Assembly: GCA_050293845.1 (NCBI GenBank)
Contig: JBNKNM010000151.1
Span: 1-13,673 of the forward strand
Length of the DNA: 13,673 bases
From: Pseudobacteriovorax sp.
GTDB taxonomy: Bacteria > Bdellovibrionota_B > Oligoflexia > Oligoflexales > Oligoflexaceae
Reading direction: 5' to 3'
Positions 1,219 through 10,401 of this stretch are shown in pieces. The notes under the pieces were generated by a model. That model worked only from the letters and a program-made list of their open reading frames with translations. It made no database searches and had not been told where the DNA came from. Both the position numbers and the translations under genes were made by a program. How positions within the stretch are numbered: the first letter of the stretch is position 1; each line of letters starts with the position of its first letter.

Positions 1219-1440
1219 TTGACATCCTCTATTTGACGTACTTTATTCGTCTTCTCTTTACCAGTCTGCGTCCTAGTTATATTTTAACTCTTCTGTAACA
1301 GTATGGAAAGAGAGCAAGGTAAAACATCGGGTGAAGGTAGACTTTTGGCCCAATACTAGCTTTATAGTCGTCTACCTATCAACTGAACCCCTTCAAAGGC
1401 AGAGCTTACCTCAAGGCTAAGATTTTTTTAATTTAGCTGC

Positions 1441-1507: not shown

Positions 1508-2389
1508 ATGTTATCTATTCGTAATATAAACAAAACCTATGAAAATGGCGTTCGGGCGCTATCGGACGTAAATCTTGAGATTCCTCAAGGTATGTTTGGC
1601 CTGCTTGGGCCAAACGGTGCGGGAAAGTCATCCTTAATGCGCACTATCTCGACTCTTCAGGATGCCGACTCGGGGACCATCGAGTTTGATGGTGTGAATG
1701 TATTGAAAAACCCTGAGACACTAAGAAAAAATCTAGGTTACCTACCCCAAGATTTTGGTGTTTACCCACGAGTAAGTGCAGAGTTTATGCTCGATCACAT
1801 GGCAATCCTCAAGGGTATCAAGCAAAAAAACCAGAGAAGAGAGCTTGTTGGTCACCTATTGCAGCAAACTAATCTCTACGAAGTACGCAAAAAAAATATC
1901 TCAACTTTTTCAGGTGGTATGAAACAAAGATGGGGCATTGCCCAAGCCTTAATAGGCAACCCTAAGCTGATAGTAGTCGACGAACCTACTGCAGGGCTTG
2001 ATCCCACAGAGAGGATCCGTTTTCATAATTTACTTTGCGAGATCGGTGAAAATGTCGTTGTTATTCTTTCCACCCACATTGTTGATGATGTGGCTGATCT
2101 TTGTCCCAATATGGCCATTCTAAATAAAGGAAGTGTCACTGCCAAAGGCAACCCTATAGACTTAATCGATGGGGTAAAAGGAAAAATCTGGGAGAGAACT
2201 TTTGATCGCAAGGAAGTAGAAGGAGCCAAAGCAAATTGGAATGTCATTTCCACTCAACTACAAATGGGAAAAACGATCGTTAGAGTTTTCAGTGAAGATT
2301 GTCCTGATTCCAGTTTTTCACCAGCAAAAGCAGGTCTAGAAGATGTCTATTTTAGCCGTTTAAGTGAACAAAGTGAGGTTCACCTATGA
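1508..2389 (+). CDS. ABC transporter ATP-binding protein (ABC-2/drug-exporter-type ATPase)
   Basis: Walker A GPNGAGKS, Q-loop YLPQ, signature FSGGMKQR, Walker B IVVDEPTAGLD, H-loop LSTH. ATG 1508 (after GAAAGG) is preferred over the track's TTG 1481. Confidence 0.95.
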   Translation: MLSIRNINKTYENGVRALSDVNLEIPQGMFGLLGPNGAGKSSLMRTISTLQDADSGTIEFDGVNVLKNPETLRKNLGYLPQDFGVYPRVSAEFMLDHMAILKGIKQKNQRRELVGHLLQQTNLYEVRKKNISTFSGGMKQRWGIAQALIGNPKLIVVDEPTAGLDPTERIRFHNLLCEIGENVVVILSTHIVDDVADLCPNMAILNKGSVTAKGNPIDLIDGVKGKIWERTFDRKEVEGAKANWNVISTQLQMGKTIVRVFSEDCPDSSFSPAKAGLEDVYFSRLSEQSEVHL

Positions 2390-5300
2390 CCTGGAATATT
2401 TTTAAATTCGAATGTCGCTATCAGCTAAGGCAACCTACCTTTTGGGTTTCTGCCACCATATTTTTCCTTTTAGCCTTCTTTGCTACCATTTCAGATAACG
2501 TACGTATAGGAGATACAGCGTCCAACATTTTCGTAAATGCTCCCTATACCATTTTCATTACTAACTTTATTTTCTCCATCATCGCTATTTTCTTCGCTGC
2601 TTCCTTTATCGCCAGCACAGTCATTAGGGATTTTGAAAATAAATCGGCTGAGATTCTATATAGCACACCTATGTCCAAATTTTCCTATCTATACGGTCGG
2701 TTTTCAGGTGGCTGGATTATGAGTGTAGCAGCCTTTGCCATGGTGAGCTTAGGTATTCTTTTGGGAAGTATTTGGCCAACCCTAGACCCCGAAACGGTAG
2801 GCCCCTTTACTGTTGCACCCTATCTGCAATCATTATTTCTCATCATATTGCCAAACCTATTTATTTCGGGTTCCATTGTTTTCTTCTTATCTACGATGAC
2901 TCGCAGTCTCATGGCTACCTACTTAGGTCTTTTGGTTCTCTTTATCATCTATTTTGTTGGTCAGACCTTCCTAGATAACCCTGAATTAAGGACCATCGCA
3001 GCACTTTCAGATCCATTTGGTCTCAGTGCCTTCGGTGATATGAGTCGCTATTGGACCCCACATGAGAAAAATCATAGTCTTATGTCTTTAAGTAAGATTT
3101 TTCTAATGAACCGCCTCATATGGATCTTTTTCTGCAGCATTCTATTAGGCCTTACGAGCTATTTATTTCCCATGACAGCTATCAAAAAGACAAAGATAAA
3201 AAAAGCTTCTTCAAAAGATGAACAAAAGCCATCCTTCAAAACAAATTTTTCAGATATAGACAAGGGAAATCAACCTCTAAAGCAATTTATCACTCGCGTA
3301 ACATTCGAAACCTTATCAGTGTTTAAATCCATTCCTTTTATTGTTCTTTTATTCATGACCATTCTCCAGGTTGCTGGGCTCATCTATGCCCAGCGATCGT
3401 TTTTGGATGCAGATATCTATCCTTTAACCCGTATTATGACCGAAGTGGTTAACAATGCGAGTAATCTCTACTTACTCATTGTTCTCATTTACTACGCAGC
3501 AGAGATTTCTTGGCGCGAACGAAAGGCTCATATCCATGAAATCATTGACGCTACACCGGCTCCAAACTGGACCTTTAGTTTGGCCAAGGTTTTTTCAGTT
3601 CTCCTGGTCATTGGCTCAACCATGATGGTAGGAATCGCTACCACTATTGTCTATCAACTGGTGAAGGGAGTCACCAATCTTGAGTTGGGACTTTACTTTA
3701 CGAACACCCTATTAATAGGGGGCTTTCGCCTTTATCTCCTCGCTTTATTGGCTATGTTTATCCAACAGTTCGTTAAAAACCAATTCATAGGTATGATTAT
3801 TATCGTCGCCTATTTCATCTTCAATGTCATGATCTCTAATTTAGGCTTTCAAGATGGACTTTATCGCCTCGGCTTTACCAAATCTATCCCCTACTCTGAT
3901 ATCAATGGATATGGACATTTTTTTAGTCACTCTAAATGGTTCTTCTTTTATTGGTCCTCCTTTGCGGGTCTACTTATTGCAGTGACTATGGCTCTATATC
4001 GAAGAGGAACCTCCTTCTCTCTTGTTAACCGATTAAAACTAGCCTGGTTAAACCAGAGTTTAGCAAGTAAGAGCTTAGTGAGCCTTTTTTTGATTGGTAT
4101 GATCTCTTCTGGTGCCTATATTTTTCACAATACTCATGTGGTCAATGAATTCCGTTCTTCAGAGGAGAAGCTTGACTTGAGTGCTGCCTATGAGAAAGAG
4201 TTTATCAAGTTCAAAGATCTTGCCCAGCCCAAGGTCACCAAAGTGTACACCGAGGTCAACCTATTTCCTCACCAACAGAGGGCAGAAATAGACGGAACAT
4301 TAACACTTGTTAACAAGTGGGACAAAGAGATCCAGTCTCTTCACATCACGATTCCAAAGAAAATTACTGTCCATGAACTCAGGTTGTCAAGAACCACTAC
4401 AAAAGAAATTCCCAATGAGAAGTTTCGCCACTACATCTATCACTTTGAAGAACCACTTCAACCCCAGAGCTCTCTTACCCTTAATTTTTCTGTGACATAT
4501 GGACGCAAAGGCTTCAGCAATAGCTCCATAGAAACAGCTGTCGTAGACAATGGTTCCTTCTTACACAGCTATAAATTTTTGCCTGGAATAGGTTATAACA
4601 AATCTTGGGAGGTCTCAGACCCGAAGGATCGGAGAGATCGTGACCTACCTAAGACGACTCCTCTTCCACCTCTAGAAAGTACTAAGGATTATCAGAATCA
4701 CTACATCGGTGACGATGCCGACTGGGTAGATTTCGAGACAGTAGTAAGTACAGTGGAGGATCAAACCGCTATCGCTCCAGGTTATTTGCAAAAAGAATGG
4801 ACAGATAACGGGAGAAAATATTTCCATTATAAAATGGATGCCCCCATCCTATACTTCTTTGCTTATCTTTCAGCTAGGTTTGAGGTTGCCAAAGAAATGC
4901 ATCATGGCATCTCTCTGGAAATATACTACCACAAAGGGCACGATTACAATTTAAGTAATATGTTCGATAGTATGAAGGCGTCTATTGACTACTTTTCCGA
5001 ACAATTTAGTCCTTATCAGCATCGACAAGCAAGGATCATCGAGTTTCCAGCTTATGCGTCCTTAGCCCAATCTCTCCCTAATACCATTCCATACTCAGAA
5101 TCTATTGGGTTCATCGCTGATCTAAGAGACAAAGAAGCCATTGACTTTGTCTATTATGTAACGGCCCATGAACTCGCTCATCAATGGTGGGGCCACCAAT
5201 TAGTTGGTGCAAATGTTCAAGGTGCTACCCTATTGTCAGAATCTCTTTCCCAGTACTCAGCCCTGATGGTGATGGAAAAAACTTACGGTGAATATCAAAT

Positions 5301-5949
5301 CCGCAAGTTTTTGAAGTTTGAACTCGATCGCTACCTCCGGTCTCGGGGCAACGAAAGTCGTAAGGAACTTCCTATAGGCCGCAATGAAAATCAACAATAT
5401 ATCCACTATCGTAAGGGAAGTCTGGTTCTATATGCTTTGAAAGACTATATAGGTGAAGAGAAACTCAACAGAGCTTTGAATAAGTTTGTCGAACAGTACA
5501 AATTCAGAGGACCTCCCTATCCCACCAGTAAAGATCTCATTAAATATATTAGAGAAGAGGCATCAGCTGAACATCAGGACATCATTACTGACCTTTTTGA
5601 AAATATTACGCTCTATGATCTGAAAGCGAAAAAAGTTACTTTGACCAAACAAGAAGATGGTAAATTTGCCATAGAATTCAAAATTGAAACAGTAAAACTT
5701 TACGCCGATGAACATGGAATGGAGTCGTCTTCACCTTTAGATGAGTTGATTGATATCGGTGTATTCACCAAGCACCCCAAAGAAATCAAGTCTAAAGATG
5801 ATGTTCTCTACTTAGCAAAGCACCGAATTCAAGGTGATGATAATATCATCCGCCTCGTTTTAGACAAGGAACCTAAGTATATTGGCATTGATCCTTATAA
5901 CAAGTTGGTTGATAGGGACTCTGATGACAATATTAAAATCATCAACTAG
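2386..5949 (+). CDS. ABC-2-type permease (two tandem membrane repeats) fused to a C-terminal M1-family zinc aminopeptidase domain
   Basis: The N-terminal half has two hydrophobic multi-TM blocks with matching RDFENKSAEILYSTP and RERKAHIHEIIDATP loops. The C-terminal half has HELAH (5167-5181), a downstream Glu (5239-5241) and YRKG. ATGA overlap with the ATPase stop suggests translational coupling. Confidence 0.92.
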   Translation: MTWNIFKFECRYQLRQPTFWVSATIFFLLAFFATISDNVRIGDTASNIFVNAPYTIFITNFIFSIIAIFFAASFIASTVIRDFENKSAEILYSTPMSKFSYLYGRFSGGWIMSVAAFAMVSLGILLGSIWPTLDPETVGPFTVAPYLQSLFLIILPNLFISGSIVFFLSTMTRSLMATYLGLLVLFIIYFVGQTFLDNPELRTIAALSDPFGLSAFGDMSRYWTPHEKNHSLMSLSKIFLMNRLIWIFFCSILLGLTSYLFPMTAIKKTKIKKASSKDEQKPSFKTNFSDIDKGNQPLKQFITRVTFETLSVFKSIPFIVLLFMTILQVAGLIYAQRSFLDADIYPLTRIMTEVVNNASNLYLLIVLIYYAAEISWRERKAHIHEIIDATPAPNWTFSLAKVFSVLLVIGSTMMVGIATTIVYQLVKGVTNLELGLYFTNTLLIGGFRLYLLALLAMFIQQFVKNQFIGMIIIVAYFIFNVMISNLGFQDGLYRLGFTKSIPYSDINGYGHFFSHSKWFFFYWSSFAGLLIAVTMALYRRGTSFSLVNRLKLAWLNQSLASKSLVSLFLIGMISSGAYIFHNTHVVNEFRSSEEKLDLSAAYEKEFIKFKDLAQPKVTKVYTEVNLFPHQQRAEIDGTLTLVNKWDKEIQSLHITIPKKITVHELRLSRTTTKEIPNEKFRHYIYHFEEPLQPQSSLTLNFSVTYGRKGFSNSSIETAVVDNGSFLHSYKFLPGIGYNKSWEVSDPKDRRDRDLPKTTPLPPLESTKDYQNHYIGDDADWVDFETVVSTVEDQTAIAPGYLQKEWTDNGRKYFHYKMDAPILYFFAYLSARFEVAKEMHHGISLEIYYHKGHDYNLSNMFDSMKASIDYFSEQFSPYQHRQARIIEFPAYASLAQSLPNTIPYSESIGFIADLRDKEAIDFVYYVTAHELAHQWWGHQLVGANVQGATLLSESLSQYSALMVMEKTYGEYQIRKFLKFELDRYLRSRGNESRKELPIGRNENQQYIHYRKGSLVLYALKDYIGEEKLNRALNKFVEQYKFRGPPYPTSKDLIKYIREEASAEHQDIITDLFENITLYDLKAKKVTLTKQEDGKFAIEFKIETVKLYADEHGMESSSPLDELIDIGVFTKHPKEIKSKDDVLYLAKHRIQGDDNIIRLVLDKEPKYIGIDPYNKLVDRDSDDNIKIIN

Positions 5950-6302: not shown

Positions 6303-8585
6303 TTGAAAAGGAATCAGACGACTAAATTAATCAGAGTGCTAAGTGTTGCAGCATTTACAGCAGCATCTTATGGTTATGCAAAGCCAGAAATGAATAAATC
6401 TATGGGGGGTAATCATAATAAGTACATGCAAGCAGACCAGCCTAAAAACAACCAATACTGGTGGCCCGACCAGTTGGACCTATCCCAGCTGAGGGATCAT
6501 GATAAACGCTCTAACCCGCTTGGTGAAGATTTCAACTATGCAGAAGAATTTAACAAGCTTGACCTCGATGCATTAAAAAAAGATATAGATAAACTTCTTA
6601 CGACTCCCCAGGACTGGTGGCCAGCTGATTTTGGCAATTATGGACCGTTCTTTATCCGCATGGCCTGGCATAGTTCAGGAACCTACCGCACGCTTGATGG
6701 GCGCGGTGGTGGTGATGGCGGCCAGATGCGCTTTAATCCCCTCAATAGCTGGCCCGACAACGCAAGTTTAGACAAGGCGCGCCGTCTTTTATGGCCTATC
6801 AAACGAAAGTATGGGGCCAGCATCTCTTGGGGTGACTTGATGATCCTTACGGGCAACGTGTCCCTAGAAAATATGGGATTCAAAACTTATGGTTTCGCTG
6901 GAGGTCGTACCGATGATTGGGAGCCGGATCTGGTCTATTGGGGACCAGAGCTTGAGATGCTAGCAAGCGATCGCATTGAGAAGTCAGGCGAGTTAAAGCG
7001 CCCCTTAGGGGCCACCCATATGGGTCTAATCTATGTAAACCCCGAAGGTCCTCGTGGCAGGCCGGACCCTATAGGTTCTGCCAAAAACATTCGCGTTGCC
7101 TTTGGTAGGATGGCGATGAATGACGAGGAAACAGTGGCTCTTGTCGCCGGGGGTCACACTTTTGGAAAAATGCACGGGGCGCACAAAGCTGCCAAGTGTA
7201 TTGGCAAAGACCCTGGTGGTGCAGCCATCGAGCAACAAGGCTTAGGCTGGAAAAATAAGTGTGGTAAAGGTCATTCCGAGGACACGGTAACTAGTGGCCT
7301 CGAAGGTGCATGGACGCAAGCCCCTACAAAATGGACAACACTTTATTTGCAAAACCTCCTCAACATTGAATGGGAGCAAACGAGAAGTCCTAGTGGAGCC
7401 ATCCAGTGGGTTCCCAAAGACAAGGCATTGCACAAGGCCGCTCCCGATGCCCACATCAAAGGAAAAAGAAATCCTATAGTCATGACAACAGCTGATCTAG
7501 CTTTAAAATTCGATCCTCAGTACAAAAAGATCGCTGAACGTTTTCTGAAAAACCCGGATGAATATCAAAAGGCTTTTTCCAAAGCCTGGTACAAGCTTAC
7601 CCATCGTGATATGGGTCCCAGAACGCGCTACCTAGGTAAACAGGTTCCTAAAGAAACCCTAATCTGGCAAGATCCGATTCCGGTAGTAGATTATAAAACA
7701 GTCGACGCTGAAGATATTAATGAGCTTAAAGAAGATATTCTTGAATCTGGGCTCACGGTACCTGAGTTGGTACGCACTGCTTGGGCTGCGGCCACTAGTT
7801 TCCGGGCTTCCGATATGCGAGGTGGAGCCAATGGTGCTCGCCTTCGCCTAGCGCCACAAAAAGACTGGGCCGTAAACAACCCCAAAGAATTAGTGAAAGT
7901 TCTCAAAAAACTCACTGACATTCAAGAGGGTTTCAATAGCGCTTTCTTTGGAAAAGCCAAGATATCTCTGGCAGATACGATTGTTCTTGCAGGAGCAGCC
8001 GCAATCGAAAAGGCGGCTAAGCATGCTGGTGTGACGGTTAGCGTGCCCTTCAAGCCGGGGCGTGCCGATGCCAGTCAAGAGCAAACGGACATAGATTCCT
8101 TTGCCGTGCTTGAGCCTAAGGCAGATGCTTTCCGCAACTACTTTAACCCCAAAGGCAACTACCGCTCTCCTGCAGAAATGCTTGTAGATCGTGCTGACCA
8201 ACTACGTTTGACAGTTCCTGAGATGACAGTTCTCGTCGGCGGTATGCGCGCACTCGATGCAAACACCGGTGGATCGAGACACGGTATCTTTACAGACAAA
8301 CCTGGGACTCTCAGCAACGACTTCTTCGTCAATCTACTTGATATGAGCACACGCTGGCGTAAAGGAAACAATGATGGGCTTTATGAAGGGCTCGATCGTA
8401 AGTCCGGTAAGGTCAAATTTACCGCGACGACAGTCGATCTGATCTTTGGCTCCAACTCTGAGCTACGCACCATAGCTGAAGCCTATGCATACAGCGATGC
8501 CAAAGAGCGTTTTGTTAAAGACTTCGTTAAAGCCTGGACTAAGGTCATGCAGTTGGATCGTTTTGATCTGAAACACGATATTTAA
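6303..8585 (+). CDS. katG: Catalase-peroxidase with a probable N-terminal Sec signal peptide
   Basis: Distal [21 protein letters not shown] (adduct Tyr), [23 protein letters not shown] (adduct Met, proximal His), [19 protein letters not shown] and the duplicated C-terminal domain. TTG start with AAGGAG at 6290-6295. Confidence 0.98.
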
Positions 8586-8651
8586 GATACTTTGCTTCGA
8601 TTTTTCCTATAGCAGCTTCTTAAAGTGTTTATTTCTCGGATCGGAAAGATT

Positions 8652-8823
8652 GAAAAATAAGTTAATAATGTTAAGGAATTCGAAAAACTTCGGTTGCCAG
8701 GCATAATGACCTTACTAAACTGTAGCGACCGAGGTAGGTGAGGATTTCGGAAGGTTGGCACAACGCAACAAGTGAAGAGTTTTTCGGATTCCAGTTATTT
8801 CTATTTTTCGCTTGCCTGGCAAC
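8652..8823. repeat. Interleaved inverted-repeat element (candidate invertible segment or structured ncRNA)
   Basis: GGAATTCGAAAAACT 8675-8689 / AGTTTTTCGGATTCC 8778-8792 (14/15). GTTGCCAGGCA 8693-8703 / TGCCTGGCAAC 8813-8823 (11/11). GAAAAATA 8652-8659 / TATTTTTC 8802-8809. The repeats are directly visible; their function is not established. Confidence 0.8.
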
Positions 8824-8964
8824 GTCACATTCATGATAAACAGCTTGACACACTGAAAATCATTGGGTTTATTTACTCACTCTAAAGATTCTGTTTACTT
8901 TATTGTAGGTCCTCATTTTTTTGAGTAAAATAAATGTATAAAAACAAAAGGAATGGGACAAGTT

Positions 8965-9318
8965 ATGGAACGTAAAGCTAAACTCCTTGTTGTTGATGAC
9001 GACTGTGATCTCTGTGAAATTATACTAGGAATGATAGAGCACGCTTATGAAGTCAAAACAGCGAATAATGGGAACGAGGCCAATCAACTTCTTCAACAGG
9101 AACATTTTGATCTTGTGATATCTGACTATAAGATGCCGGGTCTAACGGGAGCAAATTTGGCAAAAAAACATCCCAATACAAAATTTTTAATAATCACTGG
9201 CATGACCCATAAGCCAGCATCGATAAAGCACTACGAAATCTTGTCAAAACCTCTTTCTGCACAAACTTTACTTAATCGCATTTCAAAAATATTAACTGTA
9301 GACCAAAAGGCCATCTAA
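8965..9318 (+). CDS. Single-domain response regulator (receiver only)
   Basis: LLVVDDD acidic pocket, DLVISDYKMP phospho-acceptor Asp, IITG, LSKP. No output domain. ATG 8965 has better spacing to GGGA than ATG 8953. Confidence 0.92.
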   Translation: MERKAKLLVVDDDCDLCEIILGMIEHAYEVKTANNGNEANQLLQQEHFDLVISDYKMPGLTGANLAKKHPNTKFLIITGMTHKPASIKHYEILSKPLSAQTLLNRISKILTVDQKAI

Positions 9319-9359: not shown

Positions 9360-9968
9360 ATGAAAAAAATTGGCATTTACTATCGCGTTTCAACAGAAAA
9401 GCAGGATCTAGCTAGTCAAAAAAACGAAGTGCAGAAATGGCTAGACTCCCTAGATCAAGACAATAAACCTCAACACATCTTTGAATTTTGTGACACAGGT
9501 ATCTCAGGTAAAACTAGCAAAAGACCCGGTTATCAGAACATGCTTCGTGCTGCCTTTGAACGCCGCATCGATACTATCGTAGTTTACAGGCTAGATCGCA
9601 TGAGCCGTAATGCCACAGAAGCTATCCAAACATTGCTATCATTAGATCAGGCAGGAGTTGCTTTCATATCAGTAACACAACCTGTTTTAAACTTAGGACA
9701 TGATAATCCATTTCGTCGCACAATCCTTGCAGCATTCTCAGAAATTGCAGAAATTGAGAGGGAAACTATAGTAGCACGAGTCAGAAGTGGGTTGAACGCG
9801 GCTCGCATGCGAGGAATGAAGCTTGGCCGCCCCAAGAAGTACACTCGTGAAAACCAAGAGCAAGTCCGCGAATTACGCAAGCAAGGTTTAACATATATGG
9901 AAATTAGCCGTCAGACAGGTATTAGCCACGGTGCAGTACAAACCCTGGCGAAAGGCCCTGATCTCTAG
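9360..9968 (+). CDS. Small serine recombinase (resolvase/invertase family) with C-terminal HTH
   Basis: YYRVSTEKQ (catalytic Ser11), DTGISG...RPG, VVYRLDRMSRN, AEIERETIVARVRSGL (E-helix), GRPKK arm, HTH GLTYMEISRQTGISHGAV. Confidence 0.95.
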   Translation: MKKIGIYYRVSTEKQDLASQKNEVQKWLDSLDQDNKPQHIFEFCDTGISGKTSKRPGYQNMLRAAFERRIDTIVVYRLDRMSRNATEAIQTLLSLDQAGVAFISVTQPVLNLGHDNPFRRTILAAFSEIAEIERETIVARVRSGLNAARMRGMKLGRPKKYTRENQEQVRELRKQGLTYMEISRQTGISHGAVQTLAKGPDL

Positions 9969-10336
9969 GATGCAGGCAAAAGTTTTTTCAATATAAGCAT
10001 GATAGCTTCATCTTTAAATGGCTTTACCAGCCAGGCTTTCACCCCTGCTTCCTTTGCAGCTGTTTTAACGCTATCATCGCCAATTTCCGTTGTAATCATA
10101 ATAATTGGCGGGGGTTTATTATCTGAAATTTTACAAATCCGTTGACACATTTCCAGCCCGGTAAGAATAGGCATATTATGATCTGAAAGTATAAGATTAA
10201 CTGTATTTTTCTGGAAGACATCGATCCCTTCTTGGCCGTTAGTAGCCAGTAATACTTCGTGACCCGCCAGCTCAATTAAGTCCTTAATATTATTGCGTTG
10301 CATTTCCGAATCATCTACAACAAGTACTTTTGCCAT
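9965..10336 (-). CDS. CheY-like single-domain response regulator
   Basis: VLVVDDS, LILSDHNMP, IIMITTE, AGVKAWLVKPF. ATG at 10336 follows a strong GGAGG and is preferred over the track's start at 10384. Its stop shares CTAG (9965-9968) with the recombinase stop. Confidence 0.92.
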   Translation of the reverse strand: MAKVLVVDDSEMQRNNIKDLIELAGHEVLLATNGQEGIDVFQKNTVNLILSDHNMPILTGLEMCQRICKISDNKPPPIIMITTEIGDDSVKTAAKEAGVKAWLVKPFKDEAIMLILKKLLPAS

Positions 10337-10401
10337 CGATTCCCTCCATTCGCCCCAAAGATCGGTCTCACTGTAGTTTATCACAATCCAGCCTCAATAG
10401 C

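Follow-up and report, generated by a model that had tools for sequence, protein, structure and literature searches.

What is the folded segment that lies between a catalase-peroxidase gene and a response-regulator receiver gene, and does it belong to that locus? The DNA analyzed here, a stretch of 13,673 nucleotides hereafter called the window, carries both genes on the + strand. A first-pass annotation of its letters had proposed that the spacer encodes a structured RNA with pseudoknot-like or switchable pairings, either a small RNA of its own or a leader element that acts on the receiver gene as a switch or attenuator. The genes and the parts of the spacer, as delimited in this work, are the following (R1 and R2 are covariance models introduced further below).

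6303-8585, + strand: katG, encoding the catalase-peroxidase KatG (PF00141; TIGR00198, 1102.7 bits)
8629-8634, unstranded: left target-site duplication TTATTT, from flank comparison
8635-8794, + strand: full-length copy of the dispersed repeat, long form (5′ arm, then structured core), from BLAST, nhmmer, and alignment
8635-8651, + strand: 5′ terminal inverted repeat CTCGGATCGGAAAGATT, which differs from the reverse-complemented 3′ end by one indel and few mismatches
8652-8673, + strand: A/T-rich linker of the 5′ arm, from the terminal repeat to the core, aligned among the copies of the same genome
8674-8794, + strand: structured core, 121 nt (R1 106.8 bits, E 4e-25; R2 88.2 bits)
8795-8800, unstranded: right target-site duplication TTATTT, within the U-rich tract of the first-pass annotation
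8813-8823, + strand: 11-nt perfect complement of 8693-8703, in unique flank outside the repeat
8953-9318, + strand: single-domain response-regulator receiver gene (PF00072)

The repeat begins 49 bases past the katG stop codon, on the same strand as katG, and the start codon of the receiver gene, likewise on the + strand, is found 158 bases beyond the repeat end. In genome G001 the katG homologue (65% DNA identity) is followed by a plain hairpin and then by no element, and the downstream region is not syntenic with the window. The best plasmid matches of KatG itself are gammaproteobacterial, at no more than 74% identity, a weak clue to the taxon. A cyanobacterial origin was rejected, as no PSII family match was found and GCGATCGC is limited to 52 occurrences in the window's own genome.

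The window's own genome (G000) comprises 6.68 Mb in 741 contigs. With the spacer between katG and the receiver gene as query, dozens of look-alikes of positions ~8634-8798 were detected in this genome. BLAST returned 32 matches, 71-92% identical to the window copy, while an nhmmer profile made from 19 copies returned 51 matches at E ≤ 0.01, with 22 of these spanning the whole unit. Positions 8635-8794 are one copy of a dispersed repeat of ~160 nt; of its copies in this genome, about 22 are full-length and about 29 are partial. When the copies were aligned together with their flanks, the similarity was found to start at 8635 and to end at 8794, and beyond these positions all flanks differ. Contig depth rises from ~7-8 in the flanks to ~40-120 over 8644-8791, and the contigs of three DNA runs over 8200-9300 stop inside the repeat, with no joint across the element seen among them. 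The window copy is itself rather degenerate, scoring 106.8 bits versus 145.5 for the best copy.

The flanks of these copies were examined with boundaries set from the profile, and the left flank of each copy paired with the right flank of another served as control. Exact flanking repeats of at least 6 bp (6-8 bp, abutting the element) were observed for 12 of 22 full-length copies versus 5 of 462 mismatched-flank controls. In the window the identity of the two flanks extends to 8 bases (8629-8636 matching 8795-8802). One indel and one mismatch separate the consensus of the 5′ end, CCCGGATCGGAAAAATT, from the reverse-complemented 3′ end, CCGGAATCCGAAAAATT, and in the window copy the 3′ arm of the closing helix (P1, below) doubles as the 3′ terminal inverted repeat. 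The window element thus carries marks of transposition, in the form of terminal inverted repeats and a target-site duplication. Two further properties of a miniature inverted-repeat element (MITE) were also observed: the unit is small (160 bp in the window) and without a coding frame, the only open reading frames over it being minus-strand frames of 59-60 aa that were judged spurious, and its many dispersed copies vary in number between relatives. The first-pass annotation had foreseen that a match to a MITE family would remove the novelty of the structure; the match proved to be one of kind, to a MITE-like element, with no named family found. The flanks also bear on two details of the annotation. 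Its outward extensions of the closing stem, AATAA/TTATT and GAAAAATA/TATTTTTC, are present in the window, but their 3′ halves (8795-8809) differ in the other 18 copies aligned and the pairings are not conserved. Because the duplication lies at 8795-8800, the TTATT partner and the U-rich tract, which is present as described, amount to the duplicated target plus unique flank, and no terminator-like site was found by the scan.

To determine how widely the unit occurs, 41 genomes (G000 and 40 relatives) were searched by BLAST, which matched one other genus and only with the 3′ two-thirds of the unit; one such match was a tandem array of 3.3 × 117 nt. In the copies of the genome so matched, G002, the stems are quite different in sequence, whereas the unpaired words are identical. 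A covariance model (R1) was built from a MAFFT alignment of 17 cores and used to search a phylum sample of 131 species-representative genomes, all in one class. The family had 6 positives among 22 genomes, the order 14 among 95, and the class 16 among 131. After the model was rebuilt from 47 matches (R2), positives rose to 46 of 131 genomes, covering 31 of the 55 genera of the phylum, and the other 85 of the 131 genomes had no core copy at E 1e-5 or better. The number of scored matches per genome ranged from 0 to at least 48, and many genomes had at least 27. Distribution of the element is patchy, and its copy numbers are bursty, with copies sometimes in tandem; judged by these models, the 121-nt core is a phylum-wide structured family. 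Outside this sample, the best copy had no blastn match in plasmids and phages, and two conserved-word scans of a contig collection, which may leave out near records of the window's genome, returned 0 records. Two viral-contig loci retrieved with one motif pattern were set aside as chance matches since neither fits model R2.

The fold of the core was then considered. On the + strand, positions 8674-8794 fold at −38.8 kcal/mol (z −3.85), a value reached by 0 of 200 shuffles; the − strand gave −28.6 kcal/mol (z −2.36), equaled or bettered by 6 of 200. The folding advantage over shuffles expected by the annotation is therefore seen for the core but not for the wider stretch 8645-8830, which is unremarkable at −46 kcal/mol (z −1.67), a value that 11 of 200 shuffles reached. 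Copies of the same genome had little to say about conservation of this fold: RNAalifold on these copies alone gave almost no consensus (−1.18 kcal/mol), and when the consensus structure was placed on 21 G000 copies, 88.5% of cells were paired versus 87.4% in shuffles, with both-side changes in just 4 pairs, all from a sublineage. Within one genome, copies mostly decay without compensation. The structure emerged once copies from another genus joined the alignment. With the MAFFT alignment of 17 cores, RNAalifold predicted 37 pairs, 18 of which displayed compensatory change. The covariation test set comprised 47 sense-strand matches from 14 genomes. In this set a rod-like hairpin of 37 pairs was found to be paired in 90.1% of cells versus 67.4% in shuffles, 33 of the 37 pairs had changed on both sides, and the covariation score was 0.554 versus 0.168 in shuffles; the observed values on all five measures were reached by 0 of 500 shuffles, and slid controls gave 28-42% paired. 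These counts overstate the number of independent events because the 47-sequence alignment is fitted to the model and many of its rows are related copies that share a genome. Single-sequence minimum-energy folds of four other subfamilies yielded the same rod at z −6.5 to −11.8, and together with the MAFFT/RNAalifold result they provide two independent checks that support the structure. The secondary structure is thus backed by covariation, albeit in a model-fitted alignment with related rows, and the core fold is kept across the phylum by the compensatory changes that the annotation had asked for in homologues. The parts of the fold are as follows.

8676-8689, + strand: helix P1, 5′ arm, pairing with 8776-8791; the closing stem of the first-pass annotation
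8776-8794, + strand: helix P1, 3′ arm, which is also the 3′ terminal inverted repeat
8695-8705, + strand: region of short conserved pairs (8695-8697/8768-8770, 8700/8764, and 8704-8705/8759-8760)
8696-8702, + strand: loop motif GCCAGGC in the window copy; family consensus GCAAGGC
8707-8721, + strand: helix P2, 5′ arm, pairing with 8742-8757
8742-8757, + strand: helix P2, 3′ arm
8717-8725, + strand: conserved motif AAACTGTAG in the window copy; family consensus AAACCGCAG (column conservation 0.83-0.98)
8725-8739, + strand: apical hairpin P3 (8725-8729/8734-8739), with a near-invariant G-U pair
8739-8747, + strand: conserved motif TGAGGATTT (column conservation 0.89-1.0)
8760-8769, + strand: conserved motif ACAACGCAAC in the window copy; family consensus ATAACGCAGC (column conservation 0.8-1.0)

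Support varied along the rod. All 13 pairs of helices 1 and 2 (P1) had changed on both sides, with 93-98% of cells paired, as had 14 of the 15 pairs of helix 5 (P2; 84.9% of cells paired). In P3, both-side changes were observed in 3 of 5 pairs, and 45 of 47 sequences have G-U at columns 55/93. The window copy is one stem base short in P3 and has a C-A mismatch at 8697/8768. Four near-invariant internal-loop motifs separate the helices, with an overall column conservation of 0.8-1.0 in the 47-sequence alignment. Against this fold, the pairings first proposed for the spacer fared unevenly. The long closing stem (8675-8689/8778-8792, 15 bp with one U-G pair) is real, corresponds to P1, and covaries between genomes. 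An inner 11-bp helix (8687-8697/8725-8735) can be drawn in the window, but it was paired at 73.5% both in the 21 own-genome copies and in their shuffles, and over the 47 copies from 14 genomes it was no better than chance (55.5% versus 55.1%, reached by 208 of 500 shuffles); moreover, it competes with conserved helices. The alternative pairing of 8693-8703 with 8813-8823 rests on a genuine and mildly unusual complement (reached by 17 of 1,000 flank shuffles), yet the 3′ partner belongs to the flank and not to the element, and homologues therefore offer no test of it. This 11-nt complement was also considered as a fragment of a second inverted repeat in the flank, for which nhmmer found nothing. 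The partial pairing with GCAAC (8765-8769) was a near miss, 1 to 3 bases from the conserved helix 8695-8697/8768-8770; a G-to-A change in the window copy shifts the GCAAC pairing off this conserved TGC/GCA helix. The pseudoknot and its alternative pairings are not upheld, as their partners are either outside the element or not kept by other copies.

The annotation had argued from G-U pairs that pairing occurs at the RNA level and on the + strand, and at the family level this argument was borne out. Cells of the structure read on the sense strand include 126 G-U versus 34 A-C (81 versus 33 without the invariant pair), G-U exceeds A-C in 42 of 47 sequences, and in each of the five pairs folded the sense strand had a stability advantage of 6-17 kcal/mol over its complement. 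The argument is only partly circular since the strand was assigned from the asymmetric loop motifs and not from the stems. Both the G-U excess and the modeled stability suggest that the sequence functions single-stranded and in this sense, for which RNA would be the simplest form and single-stranded DNA with G-T pairs an alternative. The element is not a member of an existing Rfam family, in agreement with the failure of the annotation to place it. Rfam models gave 0 matches at gathering thresholds over the whole window; relaxing the threshold to E 10 for 8500-9000 recovered nothing relevant (JPX, idnO, snoRNA, and DUF805b at E ≥ 0.78), and at E up to 1 for 12 loci with other copies only sub-threshold microRNA-hairpin noise was recovered. 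The microRNA precursor models came from one near-perfect hairpin copy and were far below their cut-offs. Promoter-like signals were not above chance, with 3 sites versus 1.4 ± 1.1 expected.

The genes that surround the copies were also compared, using crude calls of open reading frames (at least 90 aa, longest non-overlapping). In G000 the 26 long matches were all intergenic save one that overlapped a doubtful 98-aa frame, and the upstream frame was co-oriented for 17 of 23 copies, at distances of −23 to 199 bases. Among 48 copies of other genomes, the upstream frame was co-oriented in 28 of 45 cases, for an overall 45 of 68 that represents a modest bias based on crude frame calls. The commonest setting in these genomes was between convergent genes (17 copies), often 0-6 bases from both stop codons. 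Copies are intergenic and typically lie a few to ~200 bases from a stop codon, a placement that fits with targets containing TAA or TAG and with tolerance of insertions in terminator regions. Neither a constant place upstream of one class of gene nor an expression platform, as would mark a riboswitch or attenuator, was found. The reading of the spacer as a single-locus small RNA or as a switch in the receiver leader does not hold for a dispersed, duplication-flanked repeat whose neighbors are unrelated and which mostly follows stop codons.

The ends of the element were found to differ between subfamilies to a degree that its interior does not: stem and terminus sequences are unrelated, whereas the loops are shared. 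Two forms were distinguished. Short forms consist of the core alone (117-125 bp), with P1 supplying the inverted termini; the A/T-rich linker is missing in those of G005, G007, and G015. The long form adds to the core a 5′ arm of ~40 nt, the outer part of which mirrors the 3′ end, and is associated with 6-bp duplications. It was detected in G000, G001, G023, G038, and G045, which represent three families; 6-bp duplications surround both long-form copies of G023 and the one of G045, and the flanks in G001 and G038 match at 5 of 6 bases. Among the short forms, identical 4-bp flanks (TTAG, CTAA, TTAG, and TTAA) were observed for 4 of 5 copies in G007, and the flanks in G015 were compatible with TA or a 4-bp CTAG-like word (exact 4-bp match in 2 of 5 copies). 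Elements of the IS5 group typically use a 4-bp YTAR target. In G005 the flanks suggested 8 bp, with 8, 7, 6, 6, and 5 of 8 positions matching across five copies, and four tandem units were found to be spaced by 8 bases. Exact 8-bp flanks were present around a copy of G030 (L098, related to those of G005) and a copy of G032.

G000, G005, G023, and G013 were searched for an autonomous insertion sequence that shares these termini, and none was found among the few candidates per genome, three of these four assemblies being fragmented. Inverted pairs of termini 250-6000 bp apart were absent from G000. Solo termini in G005 were internally deleted or truncated copies, and a 1.65-kb interval between termini in this genome carries a MATCAP-family gene. 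A short-chain dehydrogenase gene of G023 lies between two inverted elements, of which one is a four-unit tandem array, and in G013, a one-contig genome, two solo termini adjoin genes for a GST, a patatin, and an ammonium transporter. The link to a transposase that defines a MITE is thus missing among the candidates of these four genomes; the partner may have diverged ends or may since have been lost.

Overall, we consider it probable that positions 8635-8794 are one insertion of a non-autonomous, MITE-like element with a core of ~120 nt that folds, most likely as RNA of the + strand, into a rod-like structure. Such an element would be moved in trans by DDE-type transposases, and its copies would be transcribed passively with their neighbors, in the present case as a hairpin in the 3′ untranslated region of katG. 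Selection would act on the propagating (master) copies and not on each resident copy, and the fold and loop motifs may be kept because propagation depends on them, perhaps through the binding of some factor; from such selection it would follow that the fold and loops serve the element's own persistence or spread. A need of the propagating copies is more likely than a host function of each copy. Locally, the element would most likely act as a stable hairpin at the 3′ end of the katG message, changing message stability or read-through into the receiver gene, and not as a dedicated switch. A DDE transposase requires the termini only, so that the transposition model does not itself account for an interior so strongly conserved. 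A bolder account, which we regard as unlikely, is that the core is a selfish structured-RNA module read by a conserved factor through its four invariant loops. Its closing stem, being free to change, would then repeatedly mimic the ends of diverse resident transposons, with their duplications of 4, 6, or 8 bp, the module could spread phylum-wide under selection for the RNA fold of its propagating copies, and the RNA may even join in mobilization.

Of the other explanations, an element acting purely at the DNA level deserves the most attention, although we regard it as unlikely. Its hairpin and loops would act as single-stranded or cruciform DNA, or as protein-binding sites in the duplex, and the RNA fold would be a by-product. 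Terminal repeats and target duplications do show that DNA transposition acts on the element, and P1 is both a stem and an inverted terminus; however, the excess of G-U over A-C (126 versus 34) and the sense-strand advantage of 6-17 kcal/mol suit RNA over duplex DNA, as does the retention of a G-U pair in 45 of 47 sequences. The covariation of the inner helices P2 and P3 also argues against it, and to our knowledge such covariation has no known role for a DDE transposase. If RNA is the acting form, it could in principle serve the host, as a multicopy non-coding RNA (e.g., protein-binding or sponge) that transposases have occasionally spread. This we find quite improbable: near-invariant loops in subfamilies that have unrelated termini and duplications of 4, 6, or 8 bp, together with occurrence in 31 of 55 genera of the phylum, speak for it, but 85 of 131 genomes have no copy at E 1e-5 or better, genomes with a single copy are also duplication-flanked (8 of 8 bases in copies L098 and L100), the G000 copies gather unpaired changes almost without compensation, and promoter-like sites are not above chance.

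Two further readings have very little to recommend them. A locus-specific small RNA, or switch or attenuator of the receiver gene, as proposed at the outset, draws on the position of the element, which has katG on one side and the receiver gene on the other, all on one strand, and on the 11-nt complement in the flank (reached by 17 of 1,000 shuffles). Other copies, however, flank unrelated genes and mostly follow stop codons, the alternative partners are outside the element or not conserved, and neither a terminator-like site nor an Rfam riboswitch match was obtained, which renders this reading very improbable. Hardly credible, and the least so of all, is spread through RNA, in which a reverse transcriptase would copy the folded RNA into DNA and the boundaries would be those of the RNA hairpin. 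The boundaries of short forms do coincide with the P1 ends, no DDE partner was found in four genomes, and selection seems to act on the fold of propagating copies. Yet the duplication length is constant within each subfamily, target words are specific (e.g., CTAG/TTAG/CTAA), and the 5′ arm of the long form, which extends beyond P1, mirrors the 3′ end. Constant duplication lengths, specific targets, and mirrored ends are typical of cut-and-paste DNA transposition.

A repeat of this kind has practical consequences. It breaks assemblies, with contigs ending inside it, and can lead motif hunters into false calls of locus-specific riboswitches. It also sets stable hairpins directly past stop codons, where termination and the stability of the mRNA can be affected. 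Should the fold act at the RNA level, it would represent a large unrecognized RNA family outside Rfam, and the family offers a tractable case for what the persistence of a mobile element requires besides a transposase.

Several known repeats of bacterial genomes are comparable. REPINs are inverted doublets that are not known to have target duplications. Like REP and REPIN sequences, which are associated with RAYT transposases, the present family is intergenic, hairpin-forming, multicopy, and often clustered or tandem; unlike them, it has target duplications, and the asymmetry of its loop motifs means that one arm is not an inverted copy of the other. The element is thus neither a G+C-rich palindrome of the REP type, which the passages on REPs in PMC3184786 describe as ~25-35 nt long, nor an inverted doublet lacking duplications.

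The element more closely resembles, by analogy, bcr1, ERIC, and the Correia elements, with bcr1 and ERIC closest. Correia (nemis) elements of Neisseria are described in the part of PMC3184786 devoted to them as MITEs of ~104-157 bp that have terminal inverted repeats and form a long hairpin when transcribed, and as reported to carry promoters and an IHF site. The present family shows no promoter-like signal above chance and differs from that description in this respect. For bcr1 of the Bacillus cereus group, the same source's account (PMC3184786) gives a non-autonomous, dispersed element of ~155 bp with short direct repeats (5 bp), unevenly distributed between strains, with RNA-level structure kept by compensatory base changes, a cruciform-like fold of two independent stem-loops, and transcription shown experimentally. 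Compared with bcr1 by this description only, the present family is similarly dispersed, duplication-flanked, uneven in distribution, and marked by compensatory changes; it differs in forming a single three-helix rod and in having duplications of 4, 6, or 8 bp according to subfamily, and its host phylum appears to be different. ERIC, as portrayed in the corresponding section of PMC3184786, is a MITE of ~127 bp with terminal inverted repeats and a target duplication, flanked by TA and conserved in sequence throughout, that is often co-transcribed at the 3′ ends of genes and whose RNA fold can change mRNA stability. The present element is likewise a small MITE-like unit with terminal inverted repeats and target duplication; unlike ERIC so described, it keeps the same internal loops in subfamilies whose termini are entirely different.

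What normally defines a bacterial MITE is its conserved ends, the interior being dispensable. In the family described here this relationship is reversed: the ends and the duplication length vary, whereas an asymmetric, covarying interior with near-invariant loops recurs in 31 of 55 genera.

The genome carrying the window has an overall G+C content of 41% and a tmRNA tag of GNDQLALAA, and a search of the whole genome, whose assembly includes runs of N, returned no match to the PSII families. The phylum sample used for comparison comprised 131 species representatives from one class. Within the window, the following neighboring genes were identified:

1481-2389, ABC ATPase gene, preceding the 1187-aa ORF
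2386-5949, + strand, 1187-aa ORF with ABC-2 membrane-transporter domains in its N-terminal part and an M1 peptidase domain close to its C-terminal end
9360-9968, + strand, serine recombinase of 202 aa (Resolvase and HTH_7 domains), 41 bases 3′ of the receiver gene
9965-10384, − strand, convergent receiver gene, its end overlapped by the last 4 bases of the serine recombinase gene

No connection was found between the serine recombinase (9360-9968) and the dispersed repeat. A perfect 11-nt inverted repeat was detected between the interior of the window copy (8693-8703) and the unique downstream flank (8813-8823), and a match of this quality was equalled by 17 of 1,000 dinucleotide shuffles of the flank; beyond this complement, no further similarity of the downstream flank to the repeat was found. 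In the sister species (G001; L103, ~1380-1420, minus strand), a conventional G+C-rich hairpin is positioned 3′ of the katG homologue in place of the repeat.

Core units were also found in tandem in related genomes, including: (i) 3.3 units with a period of 117 nt and 98% identity in G002 (contig C62; L030, 1222-1602), of which only the final unit retains the full 3′ arm of the closing stem P1; and (ii) four complete units separated by 8-base spacers in G005 (C11:167232-167728). The latter spacing is the length of the target duplication of the G005 subfamily, as if each new copy had inserted into the duplicated target of its neighbor. Internally deleted derivatives of ~73 nt (L084, 501-573) and ~37 nt (L085, 470-506), in which only a portion of the core remains between the termini, were likewise detected in G005. 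In G023 (L106; C3:131300-133200), a solo 5′ terminus lies just upstream of the start of a short-chain dehydrogenase gene and a four-unit inverted tandem array lies downstream of the same gene, a bracketing that looks like a composite arrangement.
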